From: Patescibacteria group bacterium
Lineage (GTDB): Bacteria > Patescibacteriota > Dojkabacteria > J137
Length of the DNA: 64,000 nt
Assembly (NCBI GenBank): GCA_016861265.1
Contig: BOLA01000001.1
Location: 598,229-662,228, forward strand
Reading direction: 5' to 3'
Position numbers and translations under genes: made by a program. The notes beneath the pieces were generated by a model. That model made no database searches and was not told the origin of the DNA. It saw nothing but the letters and a program-made list of their open reading frames with translations. Numbering within the stretch: position 1 is the stretch's first letter; the number at the start of each line of letters is the position of its first letter. Shown here piece after piece: positions 7,094-56,285 of the stretch.

Positions 7094-7387
7094 ATGTCAA
7101 GTAAGAAATCAAGATTCAACAAGGAAAAAACCGACAAAATGAAGGTAATTTCTAAGTTTGGTGCACATGAAAAAGATACTGGATCTCCAGCTGTACAAGT
7201 GGCTCTATTAACAGAAAGAATTAAATACCTAACAAATCATTTAAAATCACATAAAAAGGATAAGCATTCCAGAAGAGGTTTGCTTAAATTAGTAGGCGAA
7301 AGAAGAAAACTAATTTCCTACATGGAAAGATCTTCAGATGATAAAGTATCTGTAACAAAATTTCTAAAACAAGTTGGTTTAGATTGA
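7094..7387 (+). CDS. rpsO: 30S ribosomal protein S15
   Basis: [46 protein letters not shown] is the S15 signature. 97 aa. Confidence 0.9.
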
Positions 7388-9987: not shown

Positions 9988-10166
9988 TTAAAAAACTTGA
10001 ACAATAGCATAATGTTTTAAATACTTATTTTTAATCCGCTTGTTAGTAAATAGAATTGGTGTTTACTTTTTTTGAACGAAGTTTTTTTGTTTTTTACTAT
10101 CTGCTTGAAATATTAGAACTATTATCATAGTATATAAATACGAATTAAATTTTTAGACTTGGTTGT

Positions 10167-20456: not shown

Positions 20457-22034
20457 TTACTTAGCTTCTTCTGTCGCTCTTAATTCTCTAATAACGTTAA
20501 CCTTAATAACACCAGGGTAGTTTTGGGTTTCCTCGATTTCTTTTGCAATTTTAAATGCCATAACTCTAGTATCTTCATCAGTTACATCTTCAGGTTTTAC
20601 AATAACTCTAACTTCTCGGCCAGCATGAATAGCATAAGCTTCTTTAACTCCACCATGCTTTCTTGCAATATCTTCTAAGGCTCTAACCCTCTTAATGTAT
20701 TCTTCGTAAGAATCTCTTCTTGCACCTGGTCTAGCACCAGAAATTGCATCAGCAATTCTTACAATCTCGGCTTCAATAAATTTTGCATCAATGTCGTAGT
20801 GGTGTGCTTCAATTGCGTTATACAATCTGTCGTTATTTTTAAAGTATTTTCTAGCAACTTCCCCAGAAATATGGTGGTGCTGCTTTCCTTCTTCAGGTGC
20901 AACTTTACCAATGTCATGTAATAAGCAAGCTAGTTTTACTGTTTGAACATCAGCTCCCATTTCAAGGGCTAACGATTCTCCAATCTTTACCATTTCTAGA
21001 GTATGCTTTACTAAGTTCTGTCCAAAGCTGAATCTATATTTAAATCTACCTAAAAGCATAATTACTTCTGTAGGAAGATTATTAAAGCCTGTCTCGTAGG
21101 CCATGTCTTCTCCAGTCTTTTTTATTACTTTTAATAAGTCCTTTTTTACTTTTTCAACTGTTTCCTCAATTGCTCCTGGGTGAACTCTTCCATCATCTAA
21201 AAGTTTTTTAAGTGCTAAAGCTCCAACTTCTCTTCTAATTGGATCGAAACAAGATAGTGTGACTTGATTAGGAGCCTCATCTACAATTAAATCTACTCCT
21301 GTTAATTTCTCGAAGGTTCTAATATTCCTACCATCCTTACCGATGATTTTTCCTTTCATTGCTTCGTCATCAATGGTGAATGTAGTTGTAGTTGTTTCCA
21401 CAACATAATCAGTTGCAGCATTAACCATTGTTTCAACTAAGATCTCTCGGGAAATTTCGTCATTTCGTAAGTTTATTTGATCCTGGTTTTCTCTAATTTT
21501 CTTAGCGAACCAGTCTTGAAGATCTCTTTCTACTTGGGCCTTAAGCTGAACCTCAGCTTCTTGCTTGGTGAGTCCGGCAATTTGTTGTAATTTTAATCCT
21601 AGTTCCTCTCTAACTTTTGTAACGTCTTTTTTGGCTTGCTCAAGACTTCTTTCTTTTGCTTCGATTGAATTGGCCCTTTCGTCAATGCTTTTAGCTCTAG
21701 ACAAAAGACCTCTTTCCCTATCGTCAAGAATTCGCTCCTGTTCTTTTAATTTCTCTCGAATGTCTCTTGCAGCTGCTTGAGCTTTACTTTCAAGCTCTAA
21801 TACATTTTTCTCAGCCTCTAATAATTTGTTTTTTGCAATCTGGCTCGCTTTCTCTATGGCTTGCTCTTCAGTCAAATTAGCCATTGATTTGCCTTTTTCA
21901 ATCGCTGCTGCAACTTGTTTTGCAGCTTCTTCCTTAACTTTTTTATTCTGATTGTTAAGATAGAACGCAACTACTCCAAAAAGAGTGGCAAGAACCAGCA
22001 AAACTGCTAAAACAAGCAATAATGCTACGTCCAT
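20457..22034 (-). CDS. rny: ribonuclease Y
   Basis: N-terminal TM, coiled-coil region, KH domain (IIGKDGRNIRTFEKLTGVDLIVD) and HD domain (LLHDIGK). Length 525 aa. Confidence 0.9.
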   Translation of the reverse strand: MDVALLLVLAVLLVLATLFGVVAFYLNNQNKKVKEEAAKQVAAAIEKGKSMANLTEEQAIEKASQIAKNKLLEAEKNVLELESKAQAAARDIREKLKEQERILDDRERGLLSRAKSIDERANSIEAKERSLEQAKKDVTKVREELGLKLQQIAGLTKQEAEVQLKAQVERDLQDWFAKKIRENQDQINLRNDEISREILVETMVNAATDYVVETTTTTFTIDDEAMKGKIIGKDGRNIRTFEKLTGVDLIVDEAPNQVTLSCFDPIRREVGALALKKLLDDGRVHPGAIEETVEKVKKDLLKVIKKTGEDMAYETGFNNLPTEVIMLLGRFKYRFSFGQNLVKHTLEMVKIGESLALEMGADVQTVKLACLLHDIGKVAPEEGKQHHHISGEVARKYFKNNDRLYNAIEAHHYDIDAKFIEAEIVRIADAISGARPGARRDSYEEYIKRVRALEDIARKHGGVKEAYAIHAGREVRVIVKPEDVTDEDTRVMAFKIAKEIEETQNYPGVIKVNVIRELRATEEAK

Positions 22035-31335: not shown

Positions 31336-34300
31336 ATGAAAAGTGTATCAATAATAGTTACTATAGTAATGAACTCACCCCTACTAAGTTATAAAAAAAG
31401 AAAAAAACGAAATCGAAATATTATTCTTTCTAGTATAGTAATCACTTTTCTTTCTATAGCTATTTTCTCAAGATTATTCGCGGCCACAAGTATAAGTTGG
31501 AATTTTGATGTCGCAGAAGATTATTTATCCTCAGATAACAACAAGGTTCAAATTAATAACGGAGATGTAACTTTAAAACAAGTCGTTACAAACCTATCTG
31601 AAGATACAGATATCGAATTTAATGATGGAGAACATATTAATACAATGTCTTCAAATAATAAATTGACATTAGGGGGAACTAAATCTCCCGTTCCCTCAAA
31701 TTCGTCTGGACTTGTTGCGCAATATAGGGCTGAGAACAATTGGGATAATGAAAAGGGTACCGGTAGTGTATCTGTTGTGGGATCACCAACCTTTGTGGCA
31801 GGGCAGATAGGTACAGGGGTAAGTTTTGACGGTACTGATGATCAGGCAATCGTTAATTCTAATTTTGGTCTTACCACCACAAATATTTCTGTTGAGTTAT
31901 GGGTTAACCTAGATTCAATCTCAGAAAACGGATCATTTGTGAAAATTGGTGGAACGGGAAATGGTGGAATTGCTGTCGGGGTAGGTTCAACTACATTCTT
32001 AGATGGTGGTAATAATCTGATTCTTTTATATGAGGGAGTTCGATGGATTAATACAAATGTAAGGATTGGAACAGGCTGGCACCATATTGTAATGGTGGTT
32101 AATAGCTCCGGAGTTCCTTCCGCATATATAGATGGACGTCTGATTGGAACCTTTGCCGGTACTAATGCAATTGCCCCTGTAAACAACAATGTTTATATTG
32201 GAGGTTATTTCGCTTCAGGTGCTAGGTTTGCTGATGCAATCATAGACGAAGTATCGATATATAATATTGATTTAAGTGGGTCGCAGATATTTCAAAATTA
32301 CCAGAAAGGAGCCGCACTCATAGGAGAGTATACTTCTAGTGTAATTGATTCCAATGCAACGGATGGAGTGCCGTGGGATTCCTTAAATTGGATACCTAGT
32401 GGCCCCTATGGAGTTGAACTCCCAAATAATATGCAAACTGAAACAACTTACCCAACCGGTAATGTAGATATGAGTGGAAATCTTGCTCTTTGGCATTTCA
32501 ATAATAACGGACAAGATAGTAGTGGTAATAATAGAAATGGGACTTTGGCAGGCAACGCTCAATATGTAACCACTTCTAAATTTGGTAGTCACTCAGCTTC
32601 TTTCGACGGAGCTGGAGATTATGTTTCTTTAGGCAATAATGCATTAGGTAATTTAGGGAATTTTACACTTTCTGCATGGATTAAAACTCCAGACACAAAT
32701 ACCTCCAGATATATTCTCACTGAATTCAGACCAAGCTGCGGTGATGCAATTTGGTATATTGATGCAAATGGTATTCCTACGTATATAGATGGTGCAGTAA
32801 CATTAAATAGTGGAGGTACGAGTGTAGAGGATAATAAATGGCATCATATTGTTTACGTATATGGTGGAACCTATGGGAAGCATTACATCGATGGAGTTCC
32901 TCAGCCAAACTCCACCGGAGCAATTTGGAGAAGCACTTGCAGTGCTGCTGACGTAAGAATAGGAATTGATGCGCAAGGAGCAGGATCATTTTTAGGTAAT
33001 ATTGATGAATTAGCAGTATTCAATAGGGCATTAACCCAAGAGGAAGTATCAGCGATATATAACCGTGGTGGGCAAACAGTTAAATACCAAGTGAGAAGCT
33101 GCAACGATAACCTATGCGATGGGGAAAATTTTATAGGTCCTGACGGATCACCAAATACTTACTACTCAATAGAAAAAAATCAGGTTACTTCAAATCCATC
33201 CATAGAATTCTCTAATTTAAACAACAACAGATATTTTCAATATAAAGTAACATTAGAGGCCCATACACAAAATGCGCTTCCGACTATAGGTTCAATAAAT
33301 TTATCTTACGAAAGTTATGCAACTGATAATCCGTATGTAAACCCTGTTTCCTCCATAGACTTGGGCGGCATTCCAAAAACAATTTCTAAATTTTGTGAAG
33401 GCACTCTTAATGGTTCAAATGAATGTACTACAACAAGTGTAAAGCCATTGGGTACGGAAATTCATTATCAAATTTGTAATGATTTAGTCTCTAACTGCGA
33501 TATAAACAATACATGGAAGTACTGGGACGGTGATAGTTGGGAAAACGCAGATAATACAGAATTCAATACTGCCTCTGACGTTTCAAGTAATATCGAGCAG
33601 TTCATTCCTTCTTCAAGATATTTATCGTTTAAATCATTCTTAAGTTCAGGAGGCAATTCTACACCAACACTAAAAGATGTTTCGGTCTCCGCTACTTTAG
33701 ATGGAATCCCACCAGTAACGAATGCATCAAATATTCATTCAAATGGTTACAACAGTAATGACTGGATAAGAAATAAACCCTTAATAGAATGGAGTGAAGG
33801 AGAAGATGATCAAGAAGGGGTAGGTCTTCTGGGTTACTGTGTGGCACTAGACGAATCTAACCTGGGAAGTAGTCAGAATTTAAACCCTTCAACAAGCGCT
33901 GGAGTTTTACAGAGTCTAGATGATGGAGTTTCTCAACAATATTGTCCATACATTGTTACGGGTACAAGCATTAATTTGAATTCAATTCAGGGGCTGAATC
34001 TAGTTACAAATAAACAATATAATTTTTCAATTAAGGCGGTTGATATTTCCGGCAATATTTGGAATGGAAGCAGCGAGGATTATCAAGACTTATTTACATT
34101 CCGATATGATGGTACTGCACCTAATAATCCTGCTTTTATTTCAATGCCAAGTAATTTTATACAAAGTAAGGATGTAACAATAACCTGGCCAACGGAAGGA
34201 GCAAATGGTGCAAGCGATGTAGGTTCGGGATTGGCCGGATTACAATATAGGATAGGGCAGAATGGTGTATGGTATGGAGATCTTCACAATGGCAATCAAG

Positions 34301-36312
34301 ATTTAACAGATTTACTTGTTAATGATGGTACATATACAACAAACCCGGAAGTAGATTACGAGAATTTAATAGACGGGTCGAACATAATTTACTTTAGAAC
34401 AGTGGATAATGCAGGAAACTATTCGATCTCTAATGTAACTGGTGTGTTAAAGATAAATACAACTGCCCCTAACCAGGTTCAGAATTTGCAAGTGAATCCA
34501 AGCGATAATATTGTTAATTCTTATTCCTTTAATTGGAGTGTTCCCGATACATTCATAGGTGAAGCCAGTGGATTAACCTATTGCTATACCGTAAATACAT
34601 TGCCAAACGGGAATAATTGCACATATACAGCAGCCGGAATAACAACTATTCCAAGCGATGCATTTGCAACTCAGCCTGGAACAAACAACTTTTATGTAGT
34701 GGCAAAAGATGAAGCGGGGAATATAAATTACGATACATATTCAAGCATCCAGTTTACGTATTCAGGGGAAGCTCCTGGAATACCATTGAATGTTGATGTT
34801 GCAGACATATCTACTAAAGAGACCCAAGACTGGAAGTTAGCAGTAACCTGGGCCGTACCTACAAATGCCGGAGCAGGAGTTAGTAGTTATAAAGTTTACA
34901 GATCATCAGTAGAAAATGCGGCTTGTAATTCAAACATGAATAACTTTAGTCAGGTAAGTAGTGTAGCAGGAACATCGTTTATCGATACAGGCTTAGAGCA
35001 GCAAGACTATTACTATTGTGTAAAAGCATGTGACAGTGCGAATAATTGTTCCGCTGTATCAAGTACTAAAGTAAAATATCCAACAGGTAAATATACTTCG
35101 CCGGCGAACCTAGTATCGGGTCCAGAACTGAATGCGGTAACAACAAAGAAGGCAGTAATTAGTTGGGTTACTGATAGAAGAAGTGATTCAAAAATACAGA
35201 TAGGGCTATCTAGTAACGACTACTTTGAGGCAGAAAGTGCAGTTTCAGCACAGGTAACATCACATACGGTGACCCTTGATAATCTAGCTGCAGGAACAAC
35301 ATATTATTATCGAGCTAAGTGGACTGACGAGGATGGCAACACCGGAATAAGTGAAGAGAAATCTTTCACTACAAACCCACCTCCAAGTATTGTTTCCACA
35401 AATGTGACTAATATTGGAATTAATAGCGCTTTACTTCAATTAAGAGTGAGTGGAGCAACAAAAGCAACAATACTATACGGCATTGAAAGTAATTTTAACC
35501 TAGTAAAGGAGGTCTTAACTTCTTTCACAGAGAGTAGTTATACAATTCCACTAGAAGATCTAAATGATAATTCTAGATATACATATAGAATAAGATTGTC
35601 AGATATCGAAGGCGCAGAATACTTAAATCTAGAGACTAATGAATTCACTACCTTACCAAGGCCTACGGTAAGTAATATTGAAATTGAGGAAATTAAAAAT
35701 GTTGCACAGCCTACTGTGAAGGTAAACTGGACCTCAAATACTGAGATTTCCTCCATAGTTACTTTCTATCCATCAAACTCAGAAGATCAGGCTAGAGATT
35801 CAATTAACTTAGATTTAGTAAAAGAGCATCAATTAGAATTATCCGGATTAATGGCAAACACTAGATATGTTTTGATTGTAAAAGGTATTGATAAATTCGG
35901 AAACGAAGCAATTTCTTCACCTCAGTTGTTTAATACTGCTACAGATACAAGACCGCCAAGAATATTTAATGTAAAGGTTGAAGCGGTAAATCCCGACAGC
36001 AGTGAAAATACATCACAAATAATTGTAAGTTGGGAAACTGACGAGTTATCTACCAGTCAAGTAGAGTACGGAGAAGGTACTAACGGAGGCTATTCTCAAT
36101 CCACCCAAATAGACAAAGGTTTAGGTTACAAGCACGTTGTAATAATTACGAATCTAAAGCCTGCAAGCGTGTACCATCTAAAGGCAATTAGTGAGGATAA
36201 TAGTAAGAATACGAGCGAGACGGGGAATATAGTAACAATAACTCCAAAGCAGCAAGAGAAGGCCTTTGACATTGTACTTAAGGGCTTAGGAGATATTTTT
36301 AGTTTCCTGTAA
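31336..36312 (+). CDS. giant (1658 aa) secreted surface protein with two LamG/concanavalin-A-like lectin domains and multiple fibronectin-III / purple-acid-phosphatase-N-like beta-sandwich repeats
   Basis: Signal peptide with a basic n-region (KKRKKRNRN) and an LFA|AT cleavage-like site. LamG_3-like blocks (DGTDDQAIVNS...ISVELWVNLD...GWHHIVMVVN; FDGAGDYVSLGNNALGNLGNFTLSAWIK...KWHHIVYVYGG). FN3/PAP-N-like blocks (WVTDRRSDSKIQIGL...TTYYYRAKWTDEDGN). A possible alternative start lies 11 codons downstream. Confidence 0.7.
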   Translation: MKSVSIIVTIVMNSPLLSYKKRKKRNRNIILSSIVITFLSIAIFSRLFAATSISWNFDVAEDYLSSDNNKVQINNGDVTLKQVVTNLSEDTDIEFNDGEHINTMSSNNKLTLGGTKSPVPSNSSGLVAQYRAENNWDNEKGTGSVSVVGSPTFVAGQIGTGVSFDGTDDQAIVNSNFGLTTTNISVELWVNLDSISENGSFVKIGGTGNGGIAVGVGSTTFLDGGNNLILLYEGVRWINTNVRIGTGWHHIVMVVNSSGVPSAYIDGRLIGTFAGTNAIAPVNNNVYIGGYFASGARFADAIIDEVSIYNIDLSGSQIFQNYQKGAALIGEYTSSVIDSNATDGVPWDSLNWIPSGPYGVELPNNMQTETTYPTGNVDMSGNLALWHFNNNGQDSSGNNRNGTLAGNAQYVTTSKFGSHSASFDGAGDYVSLGNNALGNLGNFTLSAWIKTPDTNTSRYILTEFRPSCGDAIWYIDANGIPTYIDGAVTLNSGGTSVEDNKWHHIVYVYGGTYGKHYIDGVPQPNSTGAIWRSTCSAADVRIGIDAQGAGSFLGNIDELAVFNRALTQEEVSAIYNRGGQTVKYQVRSCNDNLCDGENFIGPDGSPNTYYSIEKNQVTSNPSIEFSNLNNNRYFQYKVTLEAHTQNALPTIGSINLSYESYATDNPYVNPVSSIDLGGIPKTISKFCEGTLNGSNECTTTSVKPLGTEIHYQICNDLVSNCDINNTWKYWDGDSWENADNTEFNTASDVSSNIEQFIPSSRYLSFKSFLSSGGNSTPTLKDVSVSATLDGIPPVTNASNIHSNGYNSNDWIRNKPLIEWSEGEDDQEGVGLLGYCVALDESNLGSSQNLNPSTSAGVLQSLDDGVSQQYCPYIVTGTSINLNSIQGLNLVTNKQYNFSIKAVDISGNIWNGSSEDYQDLFTFRYDGTAPNNPAFISMPSNFIQSKDVTITWPTEGANGASDVGSGLAGLQYRIGQNGVWYGDLHNGNQDLTDLLVNDGTYTTNPEVDYENLIDGSNIIYFRTVDNAGNYSISNVTGVLKINTTAPNQVQNLQVNPSDNIVNSYSFNWSVPDTFIGEASGLTYCYTVNTLPNGNNCTYTAAGITTIPSDAFATQPGTNNFYVVAKDEAGNINYDTYSSIQFTYSGEAPGIPLNVDVADISTKETQDWKLAVTWAVPTNAGAGVSSYKVYRSSVENAACNSNMNNFSQVSSVAGTSFIDTGLEQQDYYYCVKACDSANNCSAVSSTKVKYPTGKYTSPANLVSGPELNAVTTKKAVISWVTDRRSDSKIQIGLSSNDYFEAESAVSAQVTSHTVTLDNLAAGTTYYYRAKWTDEDGNTGISEEKSFTTNPPPSIVSTNVTNIGINSALLQLRVSGATKATILYGIESNFNLVKEVLTSFTESSYTIPLEDLNDNSRYTYRIRLSDIEGAEYLNLETNEFTTLPRPTVSNIEIEEIKNVAQPTVKVNWTSNTEISSIVTFYPSNSEDQARDSINLDLVKEHQLELSGLMANTRYVLIVKGIDKFGNEAISSPQLFNTATDTRPPRIFNVKVEAVNPDSSENTSQIIVSWETDELSTSQVEYGEGTNGGYSQSTQIDKGLGYKHVVIITNLKPASVYHLKAISEDNSKNTSETGNIVTITPKQQEKAFDIVLKGLGDIFSFL

Positions 36313-43476: not shown

Positions 43477-43928
43477 GGGGATGCTTTTTAGACAGTAAAC
43501 CTGCATATTAAAAATCAAGTCGGAATTTAGATTATTTGTTCCGTAAAAATAAGTAATCACCAGTAATGGTAAATGACTATAAACGTCAATCAAATTAAAA
43601 CAGCTGTATCAAACGCAGTTGCTAATGTAAAGGCAGCTTTTGCTCCTCAATACAACCTAGCATTTGCTTAATTTGAGCAGTCGTTAATCGAAAAAAAGAG
43701 TAGATTAACCGTTTTTTAATTTCTCTTCCAGTGGAAATTACTAAACGACACTTAGCTGGAACGCAAAATTTATTCTTAGTTTACGAATAGATTCCAAGTT
43801 TAGGTAGACTAGAGTATTTGGTGTTTTGCTAGTTTTAAGCCTTTTACTCTTAAACAAAAACTTGTCTAAGCTTGTAAGAACTTTTAATGTGAGATTTGTT
43901 GGACAGGGATTATCCCTCATCTCCACCA
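43477..43928 (+). ncRNA. ssrA: transfer-messenger RNA (tmRNA, SsrA), about 450 nt
   Basis: 5' GGGGATG pairs with 3' CATCTCC-A-CCA to give a 7-bp acceptor stem with the G3:U70 alanine identity pair and an encoded CCA. An internal tag-like reading frame (...GCA GTT GCT AAT GTA AAG GCA GCT TTT GCT CCT CAA TAC AAC CTA GCA TTT GCT TAA) would give (AV)ANVKAAFAPQYNLAFA*. A hairpin terminator follows at 43929-43960. No protein-coding signal beyond a spurious antisense ORF. Confidence 0.55.
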
Positions 43929-44002
43929 AAAGGGCATCTTTAATTTTATTAAAGGTGCCCTTTTTTGTTATCATTGATGTGCATCTAAATTTAATACAAC
44001 AT

Positions 44003-44887
44003 ATGGACATAACTATCACCCTTTTATATCAGCCAATTTTCAACTTAATAGTCGTTTTTTATAGATTCTTTGGAGAGAACTTGGGTGTCGCAATTATCCT
44101 AATTGCCTTACTTTCCAGACTAATAACTGTACCAATTCTTGTAAAGCAACGAAAATCAATGGTTAAAAACCGTGAATTTACAGAAAAAAGAAAAGAATTA
44201 GAGAAAAAACACAAAAATAATAAAGAAGTATTAGATAAAGAAATGATGGCTTTGAATTCTGAATATCTGCCCGGACAATTAGCAGGTTGTCTTCCTATTA
44301 TTCTGCAGCTAATCTTCTTTATTAATGTTTACCAGGTTATTACTAACCTAATTATGCATGGAGCAGAGGCATTTAATAGTTTAGCCTATCCTGCAGTCGG
44401 CCAATTTCCAAGCGGATATCAGTTAAATTATTCATTCTTAGGAATCTTCGATTTAGGTAAAGCTCCTGCAAATTTCTCTAGCGATGGATTAGTCTTCTTG
44501 CCTTATTTAATTCTAATGATTCTAGTAGGTATTACACAGTATTACTCAATGAAGATTACAATGAACATGAGTAAAACAAGTACTACAGAGAATAAGACTA
44601 AGTCAAAGGAAGATAAGAAGAAGGACAAAAGTAAATCTAATCCTGCCTCTGAGGACTTTGCTGAGATTTTGCAGCAATCAACACAACAAACAATGCTATT
44701 ATTTCCTGTTCTTTATACATTCCTTTCGTATAACTTCCAAGCTGGGTTGGCAATATACTGGATTGTTCAGAGTGGTTTTGTTATAATCCAACAGTTCTAT
44801 ATTTCGTGGTTAGATAGGCGTGCAAAGGCAAAGGAGCAAGACTTGGTTCAGCCTGAAGCAATAACTGTAAATGTAAGACCAAAGTAA
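44003..44887 (+). CDS. yidC: membrane protein insertase YidC/Oxa1 family (short, monoderm-type core)
   Basis: The core begins LLYQPIFNLIVVFYRFFGENLGVAIILIALLSRLITVPI, followed by a charged loop and C-terminal TM helices with a basic tail. The track ORF begins at a TTG at 43826 but runs through the tmRNA terminator hairpin, so I favour ATG 44003. Confidence 0.75.
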   Translation: MDITITLLYQPIFNLIVVFYRFFGENLGVAIILIALLSRLITVPILVKQRKSMVKNREFTEKRKELEKKHKNNKEVLDKEMMALNSEYLPGQLAGCLPIILQLIFFINVYQVITNLIMHGAEAFNSLAYPAVGQFPSGYQLNYSFLGIFDLGKAPANFSSDGLVFLPYLILMILVGITQYYSMKITMNMSKTSTTENKTKSKEDKKKDKSKSNPASEDFAEILQQSTQQTMLLFPVLYTFLSYNFQAGLAIYWIVQSGFVIIQQFYISWLDRRAKAKEQDLVQPEAITVNVRPK

Positions 44888-45597: not shown

Positions 45598-45628
45598 AAA
45601 AGCCCTCCGTAAGGAGGGCTTTTTCTTT
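45598..45628 (+). terminator. rho-independent terminator (AGCCCTCC-GTAA-GGAGGGCT-TTTT)
   Basis: Perfect 8-bp stem, GNRA loop, U-tract after rplY. Confidence 0.75.
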
Positions 45629-45646: not shown

Positions 45647-47002
45647 ATGCTAAAAGATTATTATGAATTGTTTATGGATCAGAATTTAACTCCTACACAG
45701 CCAAATACTAACCCTGTTAGTGATATACAGCCACATTTGCCGTTGGCATCTGCACCTTCTCCTGTGCAGCCTGCTGCACAAGCTCAACAGTCCGCAGTAA
45801 TACCGAGTACAGAGCCAATAACGGTTTCGAATAAGCCAACACAGAATCAATTAGATGAGGCGGCGCAGGGGGCCGATGCTTACGATATGAATGTATTCGA
45901 TGAAATTACACTTTTAAAGAAAAAAGTGGCAGAGGCAAACTTACCTCAAGCATTAAGAGAGAAGGCACAAGGTATGATTTTAAGATTGGTAAAAATGTCT
46001 CAAAAGGGAAATTTTTCCGCTGAATTTGAACCTGTCTCTGAATACATTAATTGGATAATTAAAATTCCCTTTGGACAATACACCCAAGACAACATTGAGA
46101 TTGATACTGTAAAAGCTACACTTGATAAGTACAATTATGGTCTTGAGCCGGTGAAAAATAGAATACTAGAGTATTTAGCGGTATTAAAGTTACAAAATAA
46201 AACTAATATTCAGGTCGAAACTAGCGAATTAAGTATATCCGATGAAATGAAGAGACTCCAGGGTAATTCTTCTCATGCACCAATTCTTTGTTTTGTGGGA
46301 ATTCAAGGGGTAGGTAAAACGTCTATAGCTAAGGCTATTGCCACAGCATTGGATAGAAAGTTTATGAGATTGGCTTTAGGAGGAATGGGTAATGTAACAG
46401 AAATTAGAGGAATTCCCAGGGGTAGCGAAGGAGCAGAGCCAGGTCAAATAATAAAATCATTAGTGCGAACTGGAGTAATGAATCCTTTGATTCTACTGGA
46501 CGAAATTGACAAAACAAGTTCTCAGAGTGGCGTTAGGACAGATGTCATGGCAGCTTTGCTTGAAATTTTAGATCCGGAGCAGAACTCGACATTCTCTGAT
46601 AAATATTTAGATTACCCAATAGATCTATCTAAATGTATATTTATTTGTACGGCAAATAACTTAGGAGGAATCACGGCTGCTTTGCTAGACCGTCTTGAAG
46701 TTATACGTTTCGGCAGTTATACCGACAGTGATAAAGTTATGATCGCTAAAAATTATCTACTGCCAAAAGTTCGTGAGGCTACAGGGTTGGGAGAAGATCA
46801 GTTAGCCTTTGCAGATGACGTATGGCCTACAGTAATTAGACCTCTGGGCTTTGACGCGGGAGTTAGACAACTGGAAAGAACTTTAACAGAACTAGCAAGA
46901 AAAGTGGCATTGCAAATTGTTAGGGGCACAGCTAAAAGTGTAACAATTACGAAGGAAAATTTTAGAGAGTTTATTCCAGAAGATATTGGAGTTTATTCAT
47001 AA
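45647..47002 (+). CDS. Lon-like AAA+ ATPase lacking both the LON N-terminal substrate domain and the S16 protease domain
   Basis: The AAA+ module is collinear with Lon: the N-terminal helical end, Walker A (ILCFVGIQGVGKTSIAKAIA), MRLALGGMGNVTEIRGIPRGSEGAEPGQIIKSL, Walker B (LILLDEIDK), ALLEILDPEQNSTFSDKYLDYPIDLS, LLDRLEVIRFGSYTD and GVRQLER. The ORF stops exactly where the protease domain would begin and is followed by its own terminator. The N-terminus is a Pro/Gln-rich low-complexity region. Confidence 0.7.
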   Translation: MLKDYYELFMDQNLTPTQPNTNPVSDIQPHLPLASAPSPVQPAAQAQQSAVIPSTEPITVSNKPTQNQLDEAAQGADAYDMNVFDEITLLKKKVAEANLPQALREKAQGMILRLVKMSQKGNFSAEFEPVSEYINWIIKIPFGQYTQDNIEIDTVKATLDKYNYGLEPVKNRILEYLAVLKLQNKTNIQVETSELSISDEMKRLQGNSSHAPILCFVGIQGVGKTSIAKAIATALDRKFMRLALGGMGNVTEIRGIPRGSEGAEPGQIIKSLVRTGVMNPLILLDEIDKTSSQSGVRTDVMAALLEILDPEQNSTFSDKYLDYPIDLSKCIFICTANNLGGITAALLDRLEVIRFGSYTDSDKVMIAKNYLLPKVREATGLGEDQLAFADDVWPTVIRPLGFDAGVRQLERTLTELARKVALQIVRGTAKSVTITKENFREFIPEDIGVYS

Positions 47003-47027
47003 AAAAAGAGCCTTTCGGCTCTTTTTT
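47003..47027. terminator. bidirectional terminator (AAAGAGCC-TTTC-GGCTCTTT-TTT)
   Basis: Hairpin between convergent genes. Confidence 0.7.
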
Positions 47028-47041
47028 ATAGGTCTTGCTTA

Positions 47042-47623
47042 TTAAGCACTTAAATAGTTTTTATAATCCTTGTCCTTTTTCATCATTTGTTCTAATGCAT
47101 TTCTAACAATCTGAGCCTTATGCATTCTCTTTGTTGTAGAAGACCAATCTAGGTATCTATCAATTTCAGGAGAAATGATTAAGATGAATTTAGAGTCTAG
47201 TCTCTTAGCGGCTTCTTTAACAGATTCTTCAATTACTGCAGTTATATTGTCCTTATGATATTTAGTGTGTAACAAGTTCTTAGATTTATTTCCATGAACA
47301 ATAGGGTTTACTTTATCAACTGCATGTTCACTTTCAAGGGCTATAACAAACTTCTTTTCGTTGAATGCTTTTGCAATTTCATAACCAACTTTGCTGTCGG
47401 ATTTTGAAACCTCTGCAATAACTATGTCAGTATCTTTTAAAGATTTGTCTGAATGAGAAAATAATTTTTCTGCATTTTCCTTAGATTTTGCATTATGCCC
47501 AGTTGTATCAACAACATTGTGACCTAGTTTTTTTAGATGGCCTACGCCGTCCATGAATGCCTTCATGTCCTTTTCATCAAAGTCCAATGGCAATGACACA
47601 TATATTTTCATTAAATTCTTCAA
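47042..47623 (-). CDS. nucleoside 2-deoxyribosyltransferase-like family protein
   Basis: KIYVSLPL start and the DIVIAEVSKSDSKVGYEIAKAFNEKKFVIAL block match the Rossmann-like NDT-fold signature (Asp ... Glu-x-Gly). Confidence 0.5.
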   Translation of the reverse strand: MKNLMKIYVSLPLDFDEKDMKAFMDGVGHLKKLGHNVVDTTGHNAKSKENAEKLFSHSDKSLKDTDIVIAEVSKSDSKVGYEIAKAFNEKKFVIALESEHAVDKVNPIVHGNKSKNLLHTKYHKDNITAVIEESVKEAAKRLDSKFILIISPEIDRYLDWSSTTKRMHKAQIVRNALEQMMKKDKDYKNYLSA

Positions 47624-47762: not shown

Positions 47763-48986
47763 ATGTTTGGAAATAATAGAAATAAGAAAATAGTGAGCAG
47801 AAGCTCAAACTATCATTTGGCCATCGATATCGGTACTGAATTCGTTAAATCTGCTGTATTTAAAGAAGAGGATAACGAAGTTATTATATTGGGCTACAGT
47901 AGAATAAAACAAAGAGAGTCATCAATGTATGCGGCATTTATAATTAATTTGCAGGCGGTTATTGAGGCATGCGACAGAGGAGTTGGGGAAGCAGTTGCTC
48001 AGGCAATGGAAAAAGAGGGAGATAAATTTGTAATTCCTAACGATGTAATTATAGGTATTGCCGGTGAGTTGGTTCACGGAGTAACAATTATGGTTAATGT
48101 GGAAAGAGACAATCACGAAGCTAAGATTACACAAAAGGAGATCGACAAATTCGTAGAAAAAGTAAAAAAGTATACATTTTCTAGTACAGTGGAAGAAATC
48201 TCGCGAGAAATGGGGTTAAAAGCAAGTCAAGTTATAGAAGTAAATACAACCATTAACAGTGTTTATATTGATGGAATGAAGGTTATAAACCCATTAGGTT
48301 ATTCCGGTAACGAATTAGTTTATAAGGTATTTTCAACATTTGCACCCAAGATTCATTTAGATTCAATTAACCAAGTAGCCGATGCTTTAAATTTAAGATT
48401 AAGCAAGATTGTAGTAGAGCCCTATTCACTAGCGGTAGGCTTAAGAAATATGAAAGATCAAGATGCAAATGCCATAATTATTGATGTCGGAGGTGGTACT
48501 ACCGACGTTGCGTTGGTGAGCAATGGAGATATTATAGGTACAAAAATGTTTGCCATTGGCGGTAAGGTTTTTACAAAGAGAGTGCAGAGGGAGCTTGGCG
48601 TTGATTATGAAGAAGCTGAAAAAATAAAAATAGATTACTCGAATGGTGCTGTTTCCAAAGATGTCGACCTTAAATTAAGTAAAGCTTTTGAGATGGATAT
48701 TTCAACCTGGTTAACCGGAGTTGAAATAGCTTTAGAAAGTTTTAACGATGTAAAAGAGTATCCAAGTCAGATTTATATTTGCGGTGGTGGAGCATTGCTG
48801 CCTGAAATTCAGGAGGGTCTAATGACTTACCCATGGCTACAGACCTTGAATTTTAAAAAGTTTCCAAAAGTGAGCTTTATATTCCCTAATGCGTTGAGTA
48901 GTGTTTTGGATAAAACTAAGAGTGCTACTTTACCTATGGATGTAACTCCGCTAGCATTAGCTAGAATGCATTTAGAAAATTTATAA
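47763..48986 (+). CDS. second actin-fold ATPase of the FtsA/PilM family (not the ftsA at 8701)
   Basis: YHLAIDIGTEFVKSAVF (phosphate-1), IIDVGGGTTDVALVSNGDIIGTKMFAIGGKVFT (phosphate-2/adenosine) and the C-terminal actin-fold blocks. 407 aa. Confidence 0.7.
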   Translation: MFGNNRNKKIVSRSSNYHLAIDIGTEFVKSAVFKEEDNEVIILGYSRIKQRESSMYAAFIINLQAVIEACDRGVGEAVAQAMEKEGDKFVIPNDVIIGIAGELVHGVTIMVNVERDNHEAKITQKEIDKFVEKVKKYTFSSTVEEISREMGLKASQVIEVNTTINSVYIDGMKVINPLGYSGNELVYKVFSTFAPKIHLDSINQVADALNLRLSKIVVEPYSLAVGLRNMKDQDANAIIIDVGGGTTDVALVSNGDIIGTKMFAIGGKVFTKRVQRELGVDYEEAEKIKIDYSNGAVSKDVDLKLSKAFEMDISTWLTGVEIALESFNDVKEYPSQIYICGGGALLPEIQEGLMTYPWLQTLNFKKFPKVSFIFPNALSSVLDKTKSATLPMDVTPLALARMHLENL

Positions 48987-49001: not shown

Positions 49002-51146
49002 GTGTCGATTTCGTCATCCGAAAAAATTTTTATTGACCCTAGGGAGGAAATAACCTTTATTGTTGAACGTCTTTTAAAGGCGGAAAAAGACAGGGTTATT
49101 CTTGTCGTTCCTCAAAATTCCTTGCTACTAAGTAGTTTAGTTAGTATAGATATTCTTTTTAGAAAATTAGTTAGAACAAAGAAACTTGCGATTATTGTCA
49201 CAGAAGATGAATATGGTAAGTCTATTGCCTCTAAAGCAGGATTTGTAGTAGTAGATAAAGTAAGTCAGATTACAAATGAGCAGTGGAACCTAGGAAATAA
49301 CCGAAAAATTTCCATAAAAGAAATCTTAGACGAGAGAAAGAAGGCTTTGTTGGCCAATATTAGTGGTGAAAGTCATGACATAGAAGAGCTGCCTGAAATT
49401 CCAGGTACCGAAGATATAGAAGAGTATCAGGTTACGGAGCAGGAAATGGACGAAGTTGTAACGAAAAGTGTGGGATTGCCATACGAAGAGGTTTTAGAGA
49501 AGAAAGAAGAGATTCTTGATGAAGTAGAAGATGCAGTGGAGTTGGTTAATAATCAAACTGATGTAATAGAAGAATCACCTGTGGTACCTGAGGTGCCAAC
49601 TGCGGAAGATTTAGAAAAACAGGAACTAGAATCTTCTCTAAAAAAGTACGCAAAGCCAAGAAGAGAGGTTAAGGAAGTTGAATTAGACGGTATAAAGCTT
49701 GTGTCTGGCGGTGATATAAAGAGTTACATTGATTCTAAAGAAAGTGCTAAAATGGCAGATAGTAACAATTCTTTCACTCAAATGACAGACATAAATATAG
49801 ATAGAAAAATTAAAAAGGTGGGCTCTTCGTCCTTTACAGGAAAAGACTTTACAAAAAAAGTAACAGACAAAGGTGGTCTCGGGGCTCTGTTTTCGAGATT
49901 TAGCTTGAAACGAAGAAACCCGGATTTTAGAGACGAAAATGACTTTATAAAAAAAAAGAATAGAAAAAAAATTCTAATTACTACTTTTGTATTATTTATT
50001 CTATTGTTCGCTGTAGGAGGCTATGTGTTAGCGTTTCAGGTATCAACAGTAGATATTACTTTAACATTAAGAGCGCAAGATGTAAGCACATCTGCAACTG
50101 TATTGTTAAGCACTAGTGCGGAAGAACTCAGTCTGGAGAGTCCAATTACAATTCCTGCAAAGGAATATTCAATACCAGCCGATAATTTAAGTATTTCTAA
50201 GACCGGGACTGCTGATGGCAATAGTAAGAGAGGCGCTAAAGCAAAAGGGGTCGTAACAATTTATAATCTTACAGCTGAAAGTGTTACATTGGGAGCGGGA
50301 ACAAAGTTTAAAAATGTTACAAATGGATTAATTTATGTTTCCACAACTGAAGTTGTATTAGATCCGGCTACTGTCAGTTCAAATATTAAAACTCCAAGCA
50401 CTAAAGATAATGTTGCACTAGAGGCTGAAAATTTTGGACCTCAATTTAACATCGAAGTTTCTGATAAAACAAGATTCAGCATTGAAAGTTATAGTACAGA
50501 GGAAGAAATGAGTGCAACTGCATTCCAATCATTTCAGGGGGGAACTGAAGAGGCATTTACATCTGTCTCGCAAGAGAATTACGATAAATTAAAAGAAACA
50601 ATTGTACCGGATTTAAAGAAACAAGGGTTAGACAGGTTAAAATCCCTAACCGAGAGTGGATACCAGTTAATTGAAGGTACAGTTACATACGATGAAACAA
50701 AAACCCCTGAGTCTTTGCCAAAGGTTGGAGAAGAGGCAAAAGATAAGACTTTTAATTTAACAGTTCAGATAGGTATTAAGGGACTTGCAGTTAAAACGAG
50801 TGATCTAACAGAAGCTGTCAGTGCTGTTTTAAAGAATAATGCTCAGAATACGAATGGTGGAAATCTTCAGATTGATGACATAATGAATCCGCAAATCGAT
50901 AAGGTAGAAAAGAATGGAGATGATTATGTAGTAACTGTTTCTTCTAAAGGTTCGGTTAAAACCCAAATTACTCCTGAGCAAATGAAGAAAGATATATCTG
51001 GATTGACTATTCAACAGGCAAATGATTACTTTAGATTAATCGATTATATTCAGGATTATAGAGTGAATTTTAATCCAGGATTTGTACCTGACAGTATAAA
51101 ACGTGTCCCTTCCGATACATCACGAATTAATATTAAAACAAAATAA
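49002..51146 (+). CDS. bitopic membrane protein (714 aa): cytoplasmic N-terminal domain plus acidic linker, single TM, large extracytoplasmic C-terminal domain
   Basis: GTG start 16 nt after the FtsA/PilM-like gene. TM at about residues 330-352 (ILITTFVLFILLFAVGGYVLAF). No recognisable family. Confidence 0.5.
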   Translation: MSISSSEKIFIDPREEITFIVERLLKAEKDRVILVVPQNSLLLSSLVSIDILFRKLVRTKKLAIIVTEDEYGKSIASKAGFVVVDKVSQITNEQWNLGNNRKISIKEILDERKKALLANISGESHDIEELPEIPGTEDIEEYQVTEQEMDEVVTKSVGLPYEEVLEKKEEILDEVEDAVELVNNQTDVIEESPVVPEVPTAEDLEKQELESSLKKYAKPRREVKEVELDGIKLVSGGDIKSYIDSKESAKMADSNNSFTQMTDINIDRKIKKVGSSSFTGKDFTKKVTDKGGLGALFSRFSLKRRNPDFRDENDFIKKKNRKKILITTFVLFILLFAVGGYVLAFQVSTVDITLTLRAQDVSTSATVLLSTSAEELSLESPITIPAKEYSIPADNLSISKTGTADGNSKRGAKAKGVVTIYNLTAESVTLGAGTKFKNVTNGLIYVSTTEVVLDPATVSSNIKTPSTKDNVALEAENFGPQFNIEVSDKTRFSIESYSTEEEMSATAFQSFQGGTEEAFTSVSQENYDKLKETIVPDLKKQGLDRLKSLTESGYQLIEGTVTYDETKTPESLPKVGEEAKDKTFNLTVQIGIKGLAVKTSDLTEAVSAVLKNNAQNTNGGNLQIDDIMNPQIDKVEKNGDDYVVTVSSKGSVKTQITPEQMKKDISGLTIQQANDYFRLIDYIQDYRVNFNPGFVPDSIKRVPSDTSRINIKTK

Positions 51147-53382: not shown

Positions 53383-53709
53383 ATGAGTAACTTACTTTTT
53401 GTCTTTTACTGGTGGTACGTAATACTAGTAAAAGAATTCTGGCGAAGCTATGTATTGGGTAGATTAGTTTATAACTTGAATCTAACAAATACTTTGCCCA
53501 TGGCAAAGCATATATCGGATCCATTGTTCCAGGACGATTCCGGTATCGGCAAATCTTTCGGTTTTATTATTAGATTTATTTGGATAGGAATTGGATCTTC
53601 TATTAGTGTAATCGTAACAGTTCCCTTCTTCATTTTTGGAATATTTTTATTGGTATTGCCCTTATTACCGTTAATACAATTAGTTACATACTTAAATACA
53701 TTATTATGA
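53383..53709 (+). CDS. small polytopic membrane protein, 4-nt overlap with (likely translationally coupled to) the Clp-like ATPase
   Basis: Three hydrophobic helices. ATGA overlap with the next start. Confidence 0.4.
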   Translation: MSNLLFVFYWWYVILVKEFWRSYVLGRLVYNLNLTNTLPMAKHISDPLFQDDSGIGKSFGFIIRFIWIGIGSSISVIVTVPFFIFGIFLLVLPLLPLIQLVTYLNTLL

Positions 53710-56285
53710 ACGGTAAGGTACTACTAGCAAAATACAAAAATTCAAGAATATTCGTAGACTTTGGTTCACTTACATTCTTTAAGGGAGATAAACATGCTCT
53801 TTACAAACTTGAACAGAATACAGGAACCTTATTAGAAATATTTACAGCACTTCTTTTTGGAATACCCATTGTTATTCAAATCTTGAATGGAGAACTTAAT
53901 CTCTTGAATTTTTTGATACCCGATAATCTACTAAACTATTTGCCGTATATAGGTATCTACACATTTATTTTTGCAAGATTTTTAAAGCGAGATAGGAATA
54001 AATTCGATGAGGCGGTGAAAAACTATAATTTGCTTGCTGTAAATAAGAAAATTGAAGCGGGTGCTGACATGGAACTTACTGTAAATCACTACATTGACTT
54101 TGAAACACTTACAATATTAGATAAAGCTTTGGCAGATAAGGAAAGAGCTTTTATAGTTACATTATGTAAACTACTAACAGAAGATACAGAAATTGAACAC
54201 TTCTTAGCAAACAGATTAGGTATTAATAGAGATAAGTTTATAGAAGTTGTAAACCATAATAGTCACAATGCAAATTTCACACTAAATAATGCTTATAGAA
54301 CTTTATTTCTTTACTTGTTCGATGAAGCCCTAAAGCTTGAATCTAATACTATTAATAAGTTCGTATTATTCTTTGTTTTAAATAAATACTTTTTGAAAAA
54401 TATTTATTTTGACCTAGGTGTAGCAGAATTGGAATTAGAGGGTTTGAGAATTTGGTTTAAGAATGAAACAAAACAAAGAGAGTACTATATTAAGTGGGAA
54501 AGACTATCAAAATTCAAACCAAAAGGAGATGTTAATAGGGCATACACATCTAGACCTACACCAGTATTAGATGAGTATGCGGAAGATTTAACAAGTCAGG
54601 CTGCACTTGGTTTATTCATGTTGTCCGTGGGCAAGGATCAAGAATTGAATAGGGTTGTAGAAATTATGGAAAGAGACAAGGCGAGTGCATGTATGATTCT
54701 CGGAGATCCGGGCGTTGGAAAAACCAGATTCTTAAGGCATTTAGCAACAAGAATGGTTGTGGAAGATATTCCAGGTAGACTCTATGATCACAGATTGTTA
54801 TCCATTGATTTAAATAAAATCCTTACTAAAATTGGTACAGTTGATTCGTTTAAGCAGGTTCTTCAGAGAATTTTTGAAGAGGTTCGTTACTCAGGAAATG
54901 TGATTCTAGTACTTGAAGAATTTAGTCAAATACTTAACATAAGAGAAGAATCGAAACTGGAGGTTGTTAATTTGATTGTAAATGCAATAAATAATTTAAA
55001 CCTAAGATTAATTGCTACTTCTAATAATTCAAGTTATTCAAAATATGTTAAACCGTTAAAATCACTTTCCGCGTTGTTCGATGTTGTAGAGCTTAAGGAG
55101 CCATCTTCAAATGTAGCTCTACAAATTCTAATCGATGAGGTTCCAAGAATTGAGAAAAAATACAAAGTGAGTGTAAGGATTAATTCTTTAAAAAGAATTG
55201 TAGAATTTGCACCAAAGTTCGATCAGGACAGAGTAATGCCCGATAAAGGTATAGATCTATTTGAAGAGGCCTGTTTAGCAGCAAAGAATAGAGGGTTAAC
55301 ATTCCTAGATGTGTCAACGGTTGATGAAATTCTTTCTGAAAAAGTAGGTGTAAAAGTAGGTAATTTATCTGAAGGGGAAAGTCATACATTAATGGCTATG
55401 TCGGAACGAATGCATGACAGAGTTATTGGGCAGAATGAGGCTGTAGATGCTGTCGCATCTGCAATTAAAAGATCTCGTTCAGGACTGACAAATACTAAAA
55501 AACCAATTGCGTCATTTTTATTTTATGGACCTACTGGTGTTGGGAAAACAGAAGTGGCTAAAACTTTGGCCGATGTCTACTATGGCAGTGAAAACTTATT
55601 GATCAGACTAGACATGTCGGAATATCAGGAAGATCAAAATCTTAATAGAATTATTGGATATACCGATGACAAAGGCAATTTTATAGGCGGATACTTGACT
55701 GAGTCAGTCAGATCAAGACCTTTCTCGTTGGTGTTGTTGGACGAAATAGAGAAGGCTAATAAAAAGGTCTTAGATCTATTCCTACAAGTTTTAGATGAAG
55801 GTACTTTAACTGATGGTTTAGGTCGAAAGGTAGATTTTACTAATACCATAATAATTATGACTTCAAATGTAGGTTCTGACTTAATTGCGAAAGAAATCTA
55901 CGAAGGTAAAAAATACCACGATGTGGAAAAAGATGTGACAAATAAACTAAGGGAATCTTACAGGATTGAATTTTTAAACAGATTTGATAAATTAATAATG
56001 TTTAGACCGTTATCAAAAATTGAGATTGAGCAGATTGTGATGCTGATGTTGAAAAAAATAGATGATAATTTAATGCAAAAAGGAATTGGTATTTCCTGGA
56101 ATGAGGCAACTTTGGTAGAATTAGCAAACCTTGGTTATAGCGAGATGTTTGGTGCAAGAGAATTAAAAAGAATTGTGCAGGAAAACATAGAGAATAAATT
56201 AGCAGATTTAATAATTCAGGGTAAACTACGAAGCGGTACAGAAGCAGTTTTTAATGGATTAACTGTACAACAAGTGGTAAATTAA
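53706..56285 (+). CDS. Hsp100/Clp-family double AAA+ ATPase (ClpA/ClpC-type, no long M-domain) with an unusual N-terminal region containing hydrophobic segments and Clp_N-like repeats
   Basis: D1: Walker A (MILGDPGVGKTRFLRHLA), EDIPGRLYDHRLLSIDL, NVILVLEEF, PDKGIDLFEEAC. Linker: HDRVIGQNEAVDAVASAIKRSRSGL. D2: FLFYGPTGVGKTEVAKTLA, LIRLDMSEYQED, SLVLLDEIEKANKKVLDLFLQVLDEGTLTDGLGRKVDFTNTIIIMTSNVGS, C-terminal GARELKRIVQ. The N-terminal 280 aa hold two hydrophobic helices and ELTVNHYIDFETLTILDKAL-type Clp_N repeats. No [LIV]G[FL] ClpP-docking tripeptide is visible after the TSNVGS block. Confidence 0.75.
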   Translation: MNGKVLLAKYKNSRIFVDFGSLTFFKGDKHALYKLEQNTGTLLEIFTALLFGIPIVIQILNGELNLLNFLIPDNLLNYLPYIGIYTFIFARFLKRDRNKFDEAVKNYNLLAVNKKIEAGADMELTVNHYIDFETLTILDKALADKERAFIVTLCKLLTEDTEIEHFLANRLGINRDKFIEVVNHNSHNANFTLNNAYRTLFLYLFDEALKLESNTINKFVLFFVLNKYFLKNIYFDLGVAELELEGLRIWFKNETKQREYYIKWERLSKFKPKGDVNRAYTSRPTPVLDEYAEDLTSQAALGLFMLSVGKDQELNRVVEIMERDKASACMILGDPGVGKTRFLRHLATRMVVEDIPGRLYDHRLLSIDLNKILTKIGTVDSFKQVLQRIFEEVRYSGNVILVLEEFSQILNIREESKLEVVNLIVNAINNLNLRLIATSNNSSYSKYVKPLKSLSALFDVVELKEPSSNVALQILIDEVPRIEKKYKVSVRINSLKRIVEFAPKFDQDRVMPDKGIDLFEEACLAAKNRGLTFLDVSTVDEILSEKVGVKVGNLSEGESHTLMAMSERMHDRVIGQNEAVDAVASAIKRSRSGLTNTKKPIASFLFYGPTGVGKTEVAKTLADVYYGSENLLIRLDMSEYQEDQNLNRIIGYTDDKGNFIGGYLTESVRSRPFSLVLLDEIEKANKKVLDLFLQVLDEGTLTDGLGRKVDFTNTIIIMTSNVGSDLIAKEIYEGKKYHDVEKDVTNKLRESYRIEFLNRFDKLIMFRPLSKIEIEQIVMLMLKKIDDNLMQKGIGISWNEATLVELANLGYSEMFGARELKRIVQENIENKLADLIIQGKLRSGTEAVFNGLTVQQVVN

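Follow-up and report, generated by a model that had tools for sequence, protein, structure and literature searches.

Lon is usually defined as a protease in which an AAA+ ATPase motor and a peptidase are fused, and the Lon A, B, BA and C subfamilies all combine ATPase and protease domains, the ATPase of LonC being dead (PMC9569914). LonB and LonBA have a protease domain and, in addition, a membrane anchor located in the AAA+ module or at the N-terminus (PMC9569914). In LonA, the substrate is gripped by a tyrosine of pore-loop 1 and a tryptophan of pore-loop 2, and both are needed for degradation (PMC8503904). Here, we looked at a Lon-like gene carried by a 64,000-nucleotide stretch of DNA (hereafter, the window) from a Patescibacteria group bacterium (GTDB lineage Patescibacteriota; Dojkabacteria; J137), which corresponds to positions 598,229 to 662,228 of contig BOLA01000001.1 in assembly GCA_016861265.1. 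The gene is an open reading frame (ORF) of 451 codons plus stop, located at positions 45647-47002 of the forward strand of the window. A first reading, made from the sequence without database searches (the original prediction), had described it as a stand-alone Lon-derived unfoldase or chaperone deprived of both the N-domain and the protease domain. Our results indicate that the ORF is a complete gene for a LonA-derived motor, made of the helical bundle, the AAA+ alpha/beta domain and the lid, from which the N-domain and the S16 protease domain have been lost. The gene is the Dojkabacteria orthologue of a single-origin family found across the Microgenomates/Dojkabacteria/WWE3 branch of Patescibacteria. 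No relevant prior description of a protease-less Lon, or of Lon in the candidate phyla radiation (CPR), Patescibacteria or Dojkabacteria, was found among 8 million full texts. A motor-only family bears on how Lon is defined.

The ORF encodes the ATPase motor of LonA

Pfam recognised two domains in the ORF, AAA at residues 214-354 (8e-20) and Lon_lid at residues 377-431 (2.7e-11), and no Lon_C (S16) domain. The NCBIfam model of endopeptidase La (TIGR00763) matched at 3.7e-107, with a match confined to model positions 254-572 of 795, and the scores remained below both curated cut-offs (359.7 bits for a cut-off of 608 with TIGR00763, and 264.8 for a cut-off of 891 with NF008053). When E. coli Lon was compared to the window by tblastn, only Lon residues 249-579 were covered, at 41% identity, and the ORF was the sole match in the 64 kb. 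The closest solved structures were the LonA proteins of B. subtilis, human mitochondria, E. coli, Yersinia, Meiothermus and Thermus, on which query residues ~85-447 could be aligned. The predicted AlphaFold model (mean predicted local distance difference test, pLDDT, of 75.6, with a core mostly at 80-94) superposes on LonA AAA+ modules. Its best whole-target match was the engineered, isolated AAA+ domain of E. coli Lon (PDB 6n2i), with a target-normalised TM-score of 0.87 and almost the same boundaries as the natural core. However, 6n2i is a laboratory truncation of a protease, whereas the short proteins described here come from a naturally evolved, conserved gene with its own signatures. Altogether, the Pfam, NCBIfam, structure and tblastn matches are in accordance with the original prediction that the AAA+ core is that of Lon, including the helical segment ahead of Walker A and the lid with its GVRQLER motif.

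The N-terminal region (residues 1-80, positions 45647-45886) is rich in Pro, Gln and Ala (31 of the 80 residues), acidic and predicted to be disordered, with a pLDDT below 50 for residues 1-78. Among orthologues, it varies from ~0 to ~150 aa, is not conserved in sequence and is missing in some of them. It had been proposed that a Pro/Gln-rich region replaces the N-domain: the composition and the lack of an N-domain were found as described, but the variable length and sequence speak against a functional replacement. It is followed by the helical bundle that precedes the AAA+ domain (residues 81-183, positions 45887-46195, equivalent to E. coli Lon ~249-340), delimited from structure matches, alignment and model. 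In an alignment of 23 close homologues, its motif FEPVSEYINWIxxIPFG is strongly conserved. Next comes a polar insertion ahead of Walker A (residues 184-211, positions 46196-46279), missing from E. coli Lon and from most full-length LonA, in which a variable part precedes a conserved EMxRLQGNSSHAP. In the Dojkabacteria clade, insertions recur at this hot-spot. The low-complexity inserts found there are ~15 to more than 110 residues long (P0121, P0139, P0114 and P0093) and, in this clade, precede a conserved ...M..L.G.S..AP motif. Beyond the ATPase site, the Lon-type lid, an alpha-helical subdomain, occupies positions 46712-46969, with the sensor-2 motif GVRQLER at 46859-46879.

The ORF stops about 8 residues past the lid. 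The C-terminal tail, FIPEDIGVYS (46970-46999), lies within the stretch equivalent to the LonA lid-to-protease linker. All 23 aligned close homologues (23/23) end in one of a few variants of this tail, which hardly varies within the Dojkabacteria clade, where [VI]YS is present in 90/120 members. Thus, as had been anticipated, the protein ends where the protease domain of a Lon would be reached. We also considered a frameshifted or separate S16 domain, and this was rejected. Hidden Markov models (HMMs) of the Lon protease domain and N-domain were built from 63 full-length Lons and searched against stop-to-stop frames. They gave zero matches in all frames of the 64-kb window (the E. coli Lon used as positive control scored 8.7e-91), and neither S16 nor the Lon N-domain was detected across 1.44 Mb comprising the window and 82 related loci, within 10 kb of the gene in each. 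The tblastn search with E. coli Lon did not reveal S16 in the window either. A clean start and stop had been claimed as well. The ORF indeed spans exactly 45647-47002, but most homologues begin at a position aligned with Met10, so that the true start is probably the ATG at 45674-45676.

As expected from the original prediction, a terminator follows the stop codon. It is a hairpin at 47001-47027, with a folding energy (dG) of -14.1 kcal/mol and a z of -5.0, flanked by an A-run and a T-run. Owing to these two runs, it would also be able to terminate the convergent gene 47042-47623, which lies 39 bp beyond the stop of the Lon-like gene, and it is likely a bidirectional intrinsic terminator shared by the two genes. 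On the other side, L25, the gene upstream, is followed by a T-run hairpin (45598-45624, forward strand; dG -22.3 kcal/mol, z -5.7), which in this genome delimits the Lon-like gene as a separate transcription unit. Both hairpins were detected by direct folding, and a simple pattern scan for terminators flagged neither.

The truncated architecture defines a single-origin family

A search of 5.8 billion proteins gave 7279 matches, of which the best 120 are 58-87% identical to the query and 353-520 aa long; Lon_C is on record for none of these best 120 of the 7279 homologues. The exact protein encoded in the window had no entry in the contig index. When phmmer was run on 1.84 billion cluster representatives, more short clusters were found at 40-54% identity, which stop at the lid or bear solely low-complexity C-terminal tails. 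Full-length Lons (~780-830 aa) enter the phmmer list from about E = 1e-75. The truncated architecture is kept from 87% to about 40% identity, which excludes a pseudogene restricted to one lineage. Two proteins, P0146 and P0147, form a divergent short subgroup with G[HF]PG in place of AEPG after pore-loop 1 and with Ser/Asn-rich low-complexity C-terminal tails (74 and 195 aa) where the protease domain would sit.

A scan of GTDB with one genome per species gave at least 464 confirmed relatives. Their record titles are Dojkabacteria/WS6, WWE3, Microgenomates, Gottesman-, Ames-, Levy-, Shapiro-, Woese- and Roizmanbacteria, and 'Patescibacteria group'. The gene is also carried by metagenome-assembled genomes titled 'uncultured Gammaproteobacteria', 'Pseudomonadales' or 'Candidatus Bathyarchaeia' (L029, L031, L035, L037, L041, L046, L054 and others). 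Since the proteins of these genomes are 51-86% identical to those of labelled Microgenomates, these titles are probably wrong, and some 'Saccharibacteria' titles among the relatives may be mislabelled too. For locus-level work, 80 loci of the species-representative scan were retained, and in 80/80 of them the ORF is 341-472 aa long and stops 0-8 residues past the end of the match. With more than 120 close relatives and these 80 loci, the conservation of the truncated form is established. Its presence in at least 464 species-level genomes, with the ATPase residues intact, is in agreement with a stand-alone Lon-derived protein, as originally proposed, and not with a fragment.

For conservation, we used 121 close (Dojkabacteria) members, 89 short sequences representing the broad family and 64 full-length LonA. 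In a neighbour-joining tree of the AAA+ core (the 89 short and 64 full-length sequences), the short family forms one split in 50/50 bootstraps, and the mean identity is 52% inside each group and 39% between them. This single split, together with boundaries that are the same throughout, indicates that the truncation occurred once, long ago, and was then retained. The query displays all the features by which the family is defined: a helical bundle, AAA+ domain and lid only; the Walker A signature VG[LI][QVA]G[VTI]GKT, to be compared with GPPGVGKT in LonA; [AS]E[PI]G past pore-loop 1; and an end at most 8 aa past the lid. That a motor-only family is large, ancient and of single origin shows that selection can act on the Lon motor for a function other than proteolysis.

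The ATPase residues are invariant and the pore loops are remodelled

The Walker A motif of the query, GIQGVGKTS, is encoded at 46298-46324 and its Walker B motif, ILLDEIDK, with an Asp-Glu pair that is 100% conserved, at 46490-46513. Sensor-1 (CTANN, Asn337) and the trans-acting Arg finger (LLDRLE, Arg349), each 100% conserved, lie within 46634-46699. Walker A Lys/Thr, Walker B Asp-Glu, the sensor-1 Asn, the Arg finger and the sensor-2 Arg are present in 121/121 close and 89/89 broad members. Judging from these residues, the ATPase site is intact.

Pore-loop 1 (RGIPRGSEGAEPGQ, 46406-46447) differs markedly from that of Lon. The Lon T-Y-[IV]-G becomes G-S-E-G, the query having R-G-S-E-G-A-E-P-G where Lon has R-T-Y-I-G-S-M-P-G, so that Ser-Glu stands at the aromatic-hydrophobic pair (Tyr-Ile/Val) of LonA. 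The pore-loop-1 Tyr is found in 64/64 full-length LonA, whereas an aromatic residue stands there in 23/89 short sequences from the broad family and in 0/121 members of the Dojkabacteria clade. When the 195 core columns are ordered by variability within this clade, the Ile/Val position comes first (#1) and the Tyr position third (#3). Two residues on, in AEPG, the Met/Leu/Ile of Lon is replaced by Glu in 120/121 close and 88/89 broad members. Pore-loop 2 (region TSSQSGVRTDV, 46514-46546) has a 2-residue insertion and an altered motif when compared with the D[FWM]RGDP of LonA. Moreover, the AAA+ core is comparatively acidic, with a median isoelectric point (pI) of 6.3 versus 8.2 in LonA. The family has let the substrate-gripping Tyr decay, yet every ATP-hydrolysis residue was preserved. 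The term unfoldase used in the original prediction is therefore doubtful, as the pore-loop-1 aromatic residue is lost from the whole Dojkabacteria clade at a position that is among the most variable of the core, and pore-loop 2 is remodelled.

The short family departs from described Lon and Lon-like proteins

LonA (E. coli Lon, B. subtilis LonA and human LONP1; MEROPS S16, S16.001) shares a homologous helical bundle, AAA+ alpha/beta domain and Lon-type lid with the short protein, and Walker A and B, sensor-1, the Arg finger and sensor-2 are identical in kind. Contrary to LonA, the short protein has no LON N-domain, no long coiled coil/helix and no S16 domain. In addition, the pore-loop-1 Tyr is lost, the neighbouring Met/Leu has become an invariant Glu, pore-loop 2 is longer by 2 residues, Walker A contains VGIQG in place of GPPG, and an extra insertion precedes Walker A. 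The short protein is clearly descended from a Lon protease. However, four of the five LonA hallmarks that were assessed (protease domain, N-domain, pore-loop Tyr and a score above the cut-off) are lacking, and it should not be annotated as a Lon protease. Such sequences are already in public databases under the names 'ATP-dependent Lon protease', 'Lon protease 1', 'endopeptidase La' and 'AAA family ATPase' (P0004, P0012, P0023 and others). These names are generic or misleading, and Lon proteolysis may wrongly be attributed to CPR bacteria when their metabolism or proteostasis is reconstructed.

When compared to the Lon subfamilies, as had been suggested, the protein has a LonA core, without the features of LonB/LonBA or LonC. 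As regards LonB/LonBA, the protease domain is lacking, the insertion at residues 184-211 is polar, and the N-terminus is Pro/Gln-rich and not hydrophobic. LonC, e.g. that of Meiothermus taiwanensis, is also a Lon descendant without one of the two activities (PMC9569914). It is the mirror image of the short family: LonC has kept the protease and has a dead ATPase, whereas in the short family the ATPase site is intact and the protease is gone. The BrxL/BREX Lon-like ATPases are also AAA+ proteins related to Lon whose role is non-proteolytic (PMC10164562). In contrast to BrxL, the gene context of the short family is housekeeping, without a defence island. A defence-system ATPase was considered and rejected, since PADLOC gave generic AAA-level matches only (DolB at 5e-13, no BrxL) and the neighbours are housekeeping genes. 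In threading AAA+ unfoldases of the ClpX, HslU and ClpB types, the aromatic residue of pore-loop 1 is conserved, contrary to the Dojkabacteria clade. AAA+ motors that persist without a peptidase are known, such as Mcx1, the yeast mitochondrial ClpX homologue, and ClpB/Hsp104, unfoldase-type rings that carry out non-degradative remodelling. However, these proteins keep the aromatic pore loop, thread their substrates and belong to other AAA+ subfamilies.

Proposed function and alternative explanations

We favour the reading in which the gene is functional and vertically inherited, and encodes an ATPase with a non-proteolytic, probably non-threading mechanism, and we give this reading a probability of about 0.55. 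As the trans-acting Arg finger is invariant, the active site would be completed by a neighbouring subunit and an oligomer is expected. The LonA-derived subunits would assemble into a ring or a spiral, which is predicted to bind and hydrolyse ATP, and the protein itself would be incapable of degrading proteins. With the pore-loop-1 Tyr gone, a loop tip that evolves freely and an invariant Glu beside it, processive threading as in Lon is unlikely for the Dojkabacteria proteins, which, from their sequences, most likely do not translocate polypeptides in this way. Certain client proteins or complexes might then be bound, held or remodelled through ATP-driven conformational cycling, in a non-proteolytic role that could be chaperone-like or concern assembly and disassembly. 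This proposed role can be likened to the protease-independent, ATPase-dependent anti-aggregation activity reported for LONP1 (PMC8368198). The mechanism of the protease-independent 'chaperone' activity of Lon is contested, and the family could help as a natural test case.

Several points weigh against this interpretation. A 2026 preprint puts LONP1's chaperone-like activity in the N-domain and describes it as ATPase-independent (10.64898/2026.05.06.723147). The N-domain is precisely what is missing from the Lon-like ATPase. Assembly of a ring without the protease domain is assumed from the conservation of the Arg finger, and much of the LonA hexamer interface is supplied by the protease domain. 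About a quarter of the broader family (23/89) keeps a Phe or Tyr at the pore-loop position, and these members may still translocate. Finally, the gene order pnp-X-rnj, X being the Lon-like gene, is found in most Microgenomates and points to RNA decay, another cellular context.

This gene order is the basis of an alternative, namely that the protein is an accessory ATPase of RNA decay which acts with PNPase and RNase J, e.g. by remodelling ribonucleoprotein substrates or the nucleases themselves. In the wider family, the gene is co-directional with its neighbours in the order infB, DHH, rpsO, pnp, X, (UDG), rnj (RNase J), ftsK in 43-50/80 species-level loci, with a median gap of 65 bp from pnp to the Lon-like gene. 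LonA binds nucleic acids (e.g. PMC11719849). However, the linkage is missing in the Dojkabacteria clade, and the neighbours in the window are yidC, L25 and FtsA-like genes. Owing to shared phylogeny, the 80 loci do not count as independent observations, and streamlined genomes often contain long runs of genes in one direction. Moreover, the acidic core and the invariant pore Glu do not favour nucleic-acid binding, and we consider a role in RNA decay improbable. We judge in a similar way, as speculative and improbable, a broader scenario in which Lon was converted once, at the base of Microgenomates/Dojkabacteria/WWE3, into a sole Lon descendant with an acidic pore that does not thread and that serves a specific housekeeping target. 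The candidate targets in that scenario are the RNA-decay enzymes (pnp, X, rnj) or tmRNA-tagged proteins. The pnp-X-rnj linkage and the transfer-messenger RNA (tmRNA) gene near the Lon-like gene provide concrete hypotheses on its role. Alternatively, the protein could be the ATPase half of a split two-component protease, as HslU is for HslV and ClpX for ClpP, and dock on a peptidase encoded elsewhere. The partner would be a free S16 domain or another chambered peptidase, with docking perhaps by the conserved C-terminal aromatic tail. HslU and the proteasomal ATPases (HbYX) dock through hydrophobic/aromatic C-terminal tails, which makes the tail no more than a lead for this explanation. The near invariance of FIPEDIGVYS in the Dojkabacteria clade, including its [VI]-Y-S end, would fit, and 38/80 broader-family proteins terminate in Trp or Tyr. 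In the model of the monomer, the tail was predicted with low confidence, as would be the case for a segment packing against another surface. Nevertheless, the S16 domain was found neither in the window nor within 10 kb of the 82 other family members, the conserved neighbours of the family include no peptidase, and pore loops able to grip are required of a motor feeding a chamber, whereas here the Tyr is lost and the tip unconstrained. We rejected an HbYX-type docking tail as such: [VI]YS is frequent and not universal in the clade, the tail differs in distant members and is not conserved family-wide, and the terminal aromatic residue may be seen as a remnant of the linker motif of LonA, [FY]-L-G-x-x-[KR]-[FY]. 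The tail is kept as weak support for a split protease, which appears unlikely.

Another explanation to be weighed against a non-threading ATPase acting by itself is that it serves, as a paralogous subunit or as a regulator, a canonical full-length Lon located elsewhere in the genome. It would form mixed rings or compete for substrates, as in the case of the inactive plastid FtsHi. The protein has kept the helical bundle, the Arg finger between subunits and the lid, which would permit this. But a canonical Lon was seen neither in the window nor in any of the 82 flanks, and the family diverged long ago as one clade with its own signatures and 39% mean identity to LonA. In addition, the nearest full-length Lons that bear a name come from unrelated bacteria such as Christensenella. 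We therefore have little confidence in a regulator of Lon. As for a truncated pseudogene, an assembly artefact or a gene fragment, nothing beyond the unusual architecture speaks for it. Hundreds of assemblies, independent of each other and comprising one contig of 1.19 Mb, show the same boundaries. The catalytic residues are all invariant, and the C-terminal tail is nearly so across the Dojkabacteria clade. Furthermore, the stop is followed by a terminator and, 39 bp downstream, by the convergent gene, and no S16 remnant exists in any frame of the window. This explanation is refuted by the conservation data, and its probability is practically nil.

The gene lies among housekeeping genes

In the window, the order of genes is LexA, YceG, RuvX, a ComF-like gene, tmRNA, YidC, L25, the Lon-like gene and the convergent nucleoside-deoxyribosyltransferase-like gene, followed by an FtsA/PilM-like gene, a gene for a 714-aa protein, GroES, GroEL and a ClpB-type ATPase. 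The same order is found in the 1.19-Mb Dojkabacteria contig (OZ246402.1 of assembly GCA_965230975.1, L002) and in a 59%-identical relative. This shared order indicates that the Lon-like gene is a vertically inherited gene of the core chromosome in Dojkabacteria, where it forms a transcription unit by itself. We dropped the order yidC-L25-X-FtsA-like-GroES/EL as a functional clue, since it holds within Dojkabacteria only. No PNPase (pnp) or RNase J (rnj) match was found anywhere in the 64-kb window. In the loci of the wider family (L021-L084, with the gene near position 10000), pnp is located for example at 6494-8734 in L035 and the RNase J gene at 11062-12798 in L058.

The tmRNA gene (43477-43928, forward strand) was identified by Rfam (64 bits, E 1e-22) and was not reported by ARAGORN. 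Its tag reading frame ends with ...AAFAPQYNLAFA-stop, the final letters being ...YNLAFA. This AFA-type ending presumably resembles the Mycoplasma tag. The Mycoplasma tmRNA tag is degraded by Lon rather than by ClpXP. An ending of this kind is unexpected for a bacterium in which the Lon homologue is devoid of a protease domain. The yidC ORF with a TTG start (43826-44887, forward strand) overlaps the 3' part of the tmRNA, so that yidC must in reality start at a more downstream position.

Downstream of the Lon-like gene, the N-terminal half of the convergent gene product (47042-47623, reverse strand) has a weak match to nucleoside 2-deoxyribosyltransferase. In L004, a relative that is more distant, two deoxyribosyltransferase-like genes alternate with methyltransferase genes downstream of the Lon-like gene. 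The window contains two FtsA-like genes, both on the forward strand: a canonical one with an SHS2 insert (8701-9987) and the FtsA/PilM-like one (47763-48986), which is followed by the gene for the conserved 714-aa protein of unknown function (49002-51146). The ClpB-type gene (53706-56285, forward strand), directly past GroES/GroEL, encodes a double-ring AAA+ ATPase. Elsewhere in the window, an RNase Y gene (20457-22034, reverse strand) and an S15 gene (7133-7381) are present. Finally, a 1658-aa ORF (31336-36312, forward strand) with Laminin_G_3, purple-acid-phosphatase N-terminal and fibronectin type III domains probably encodes a giant surface protein.

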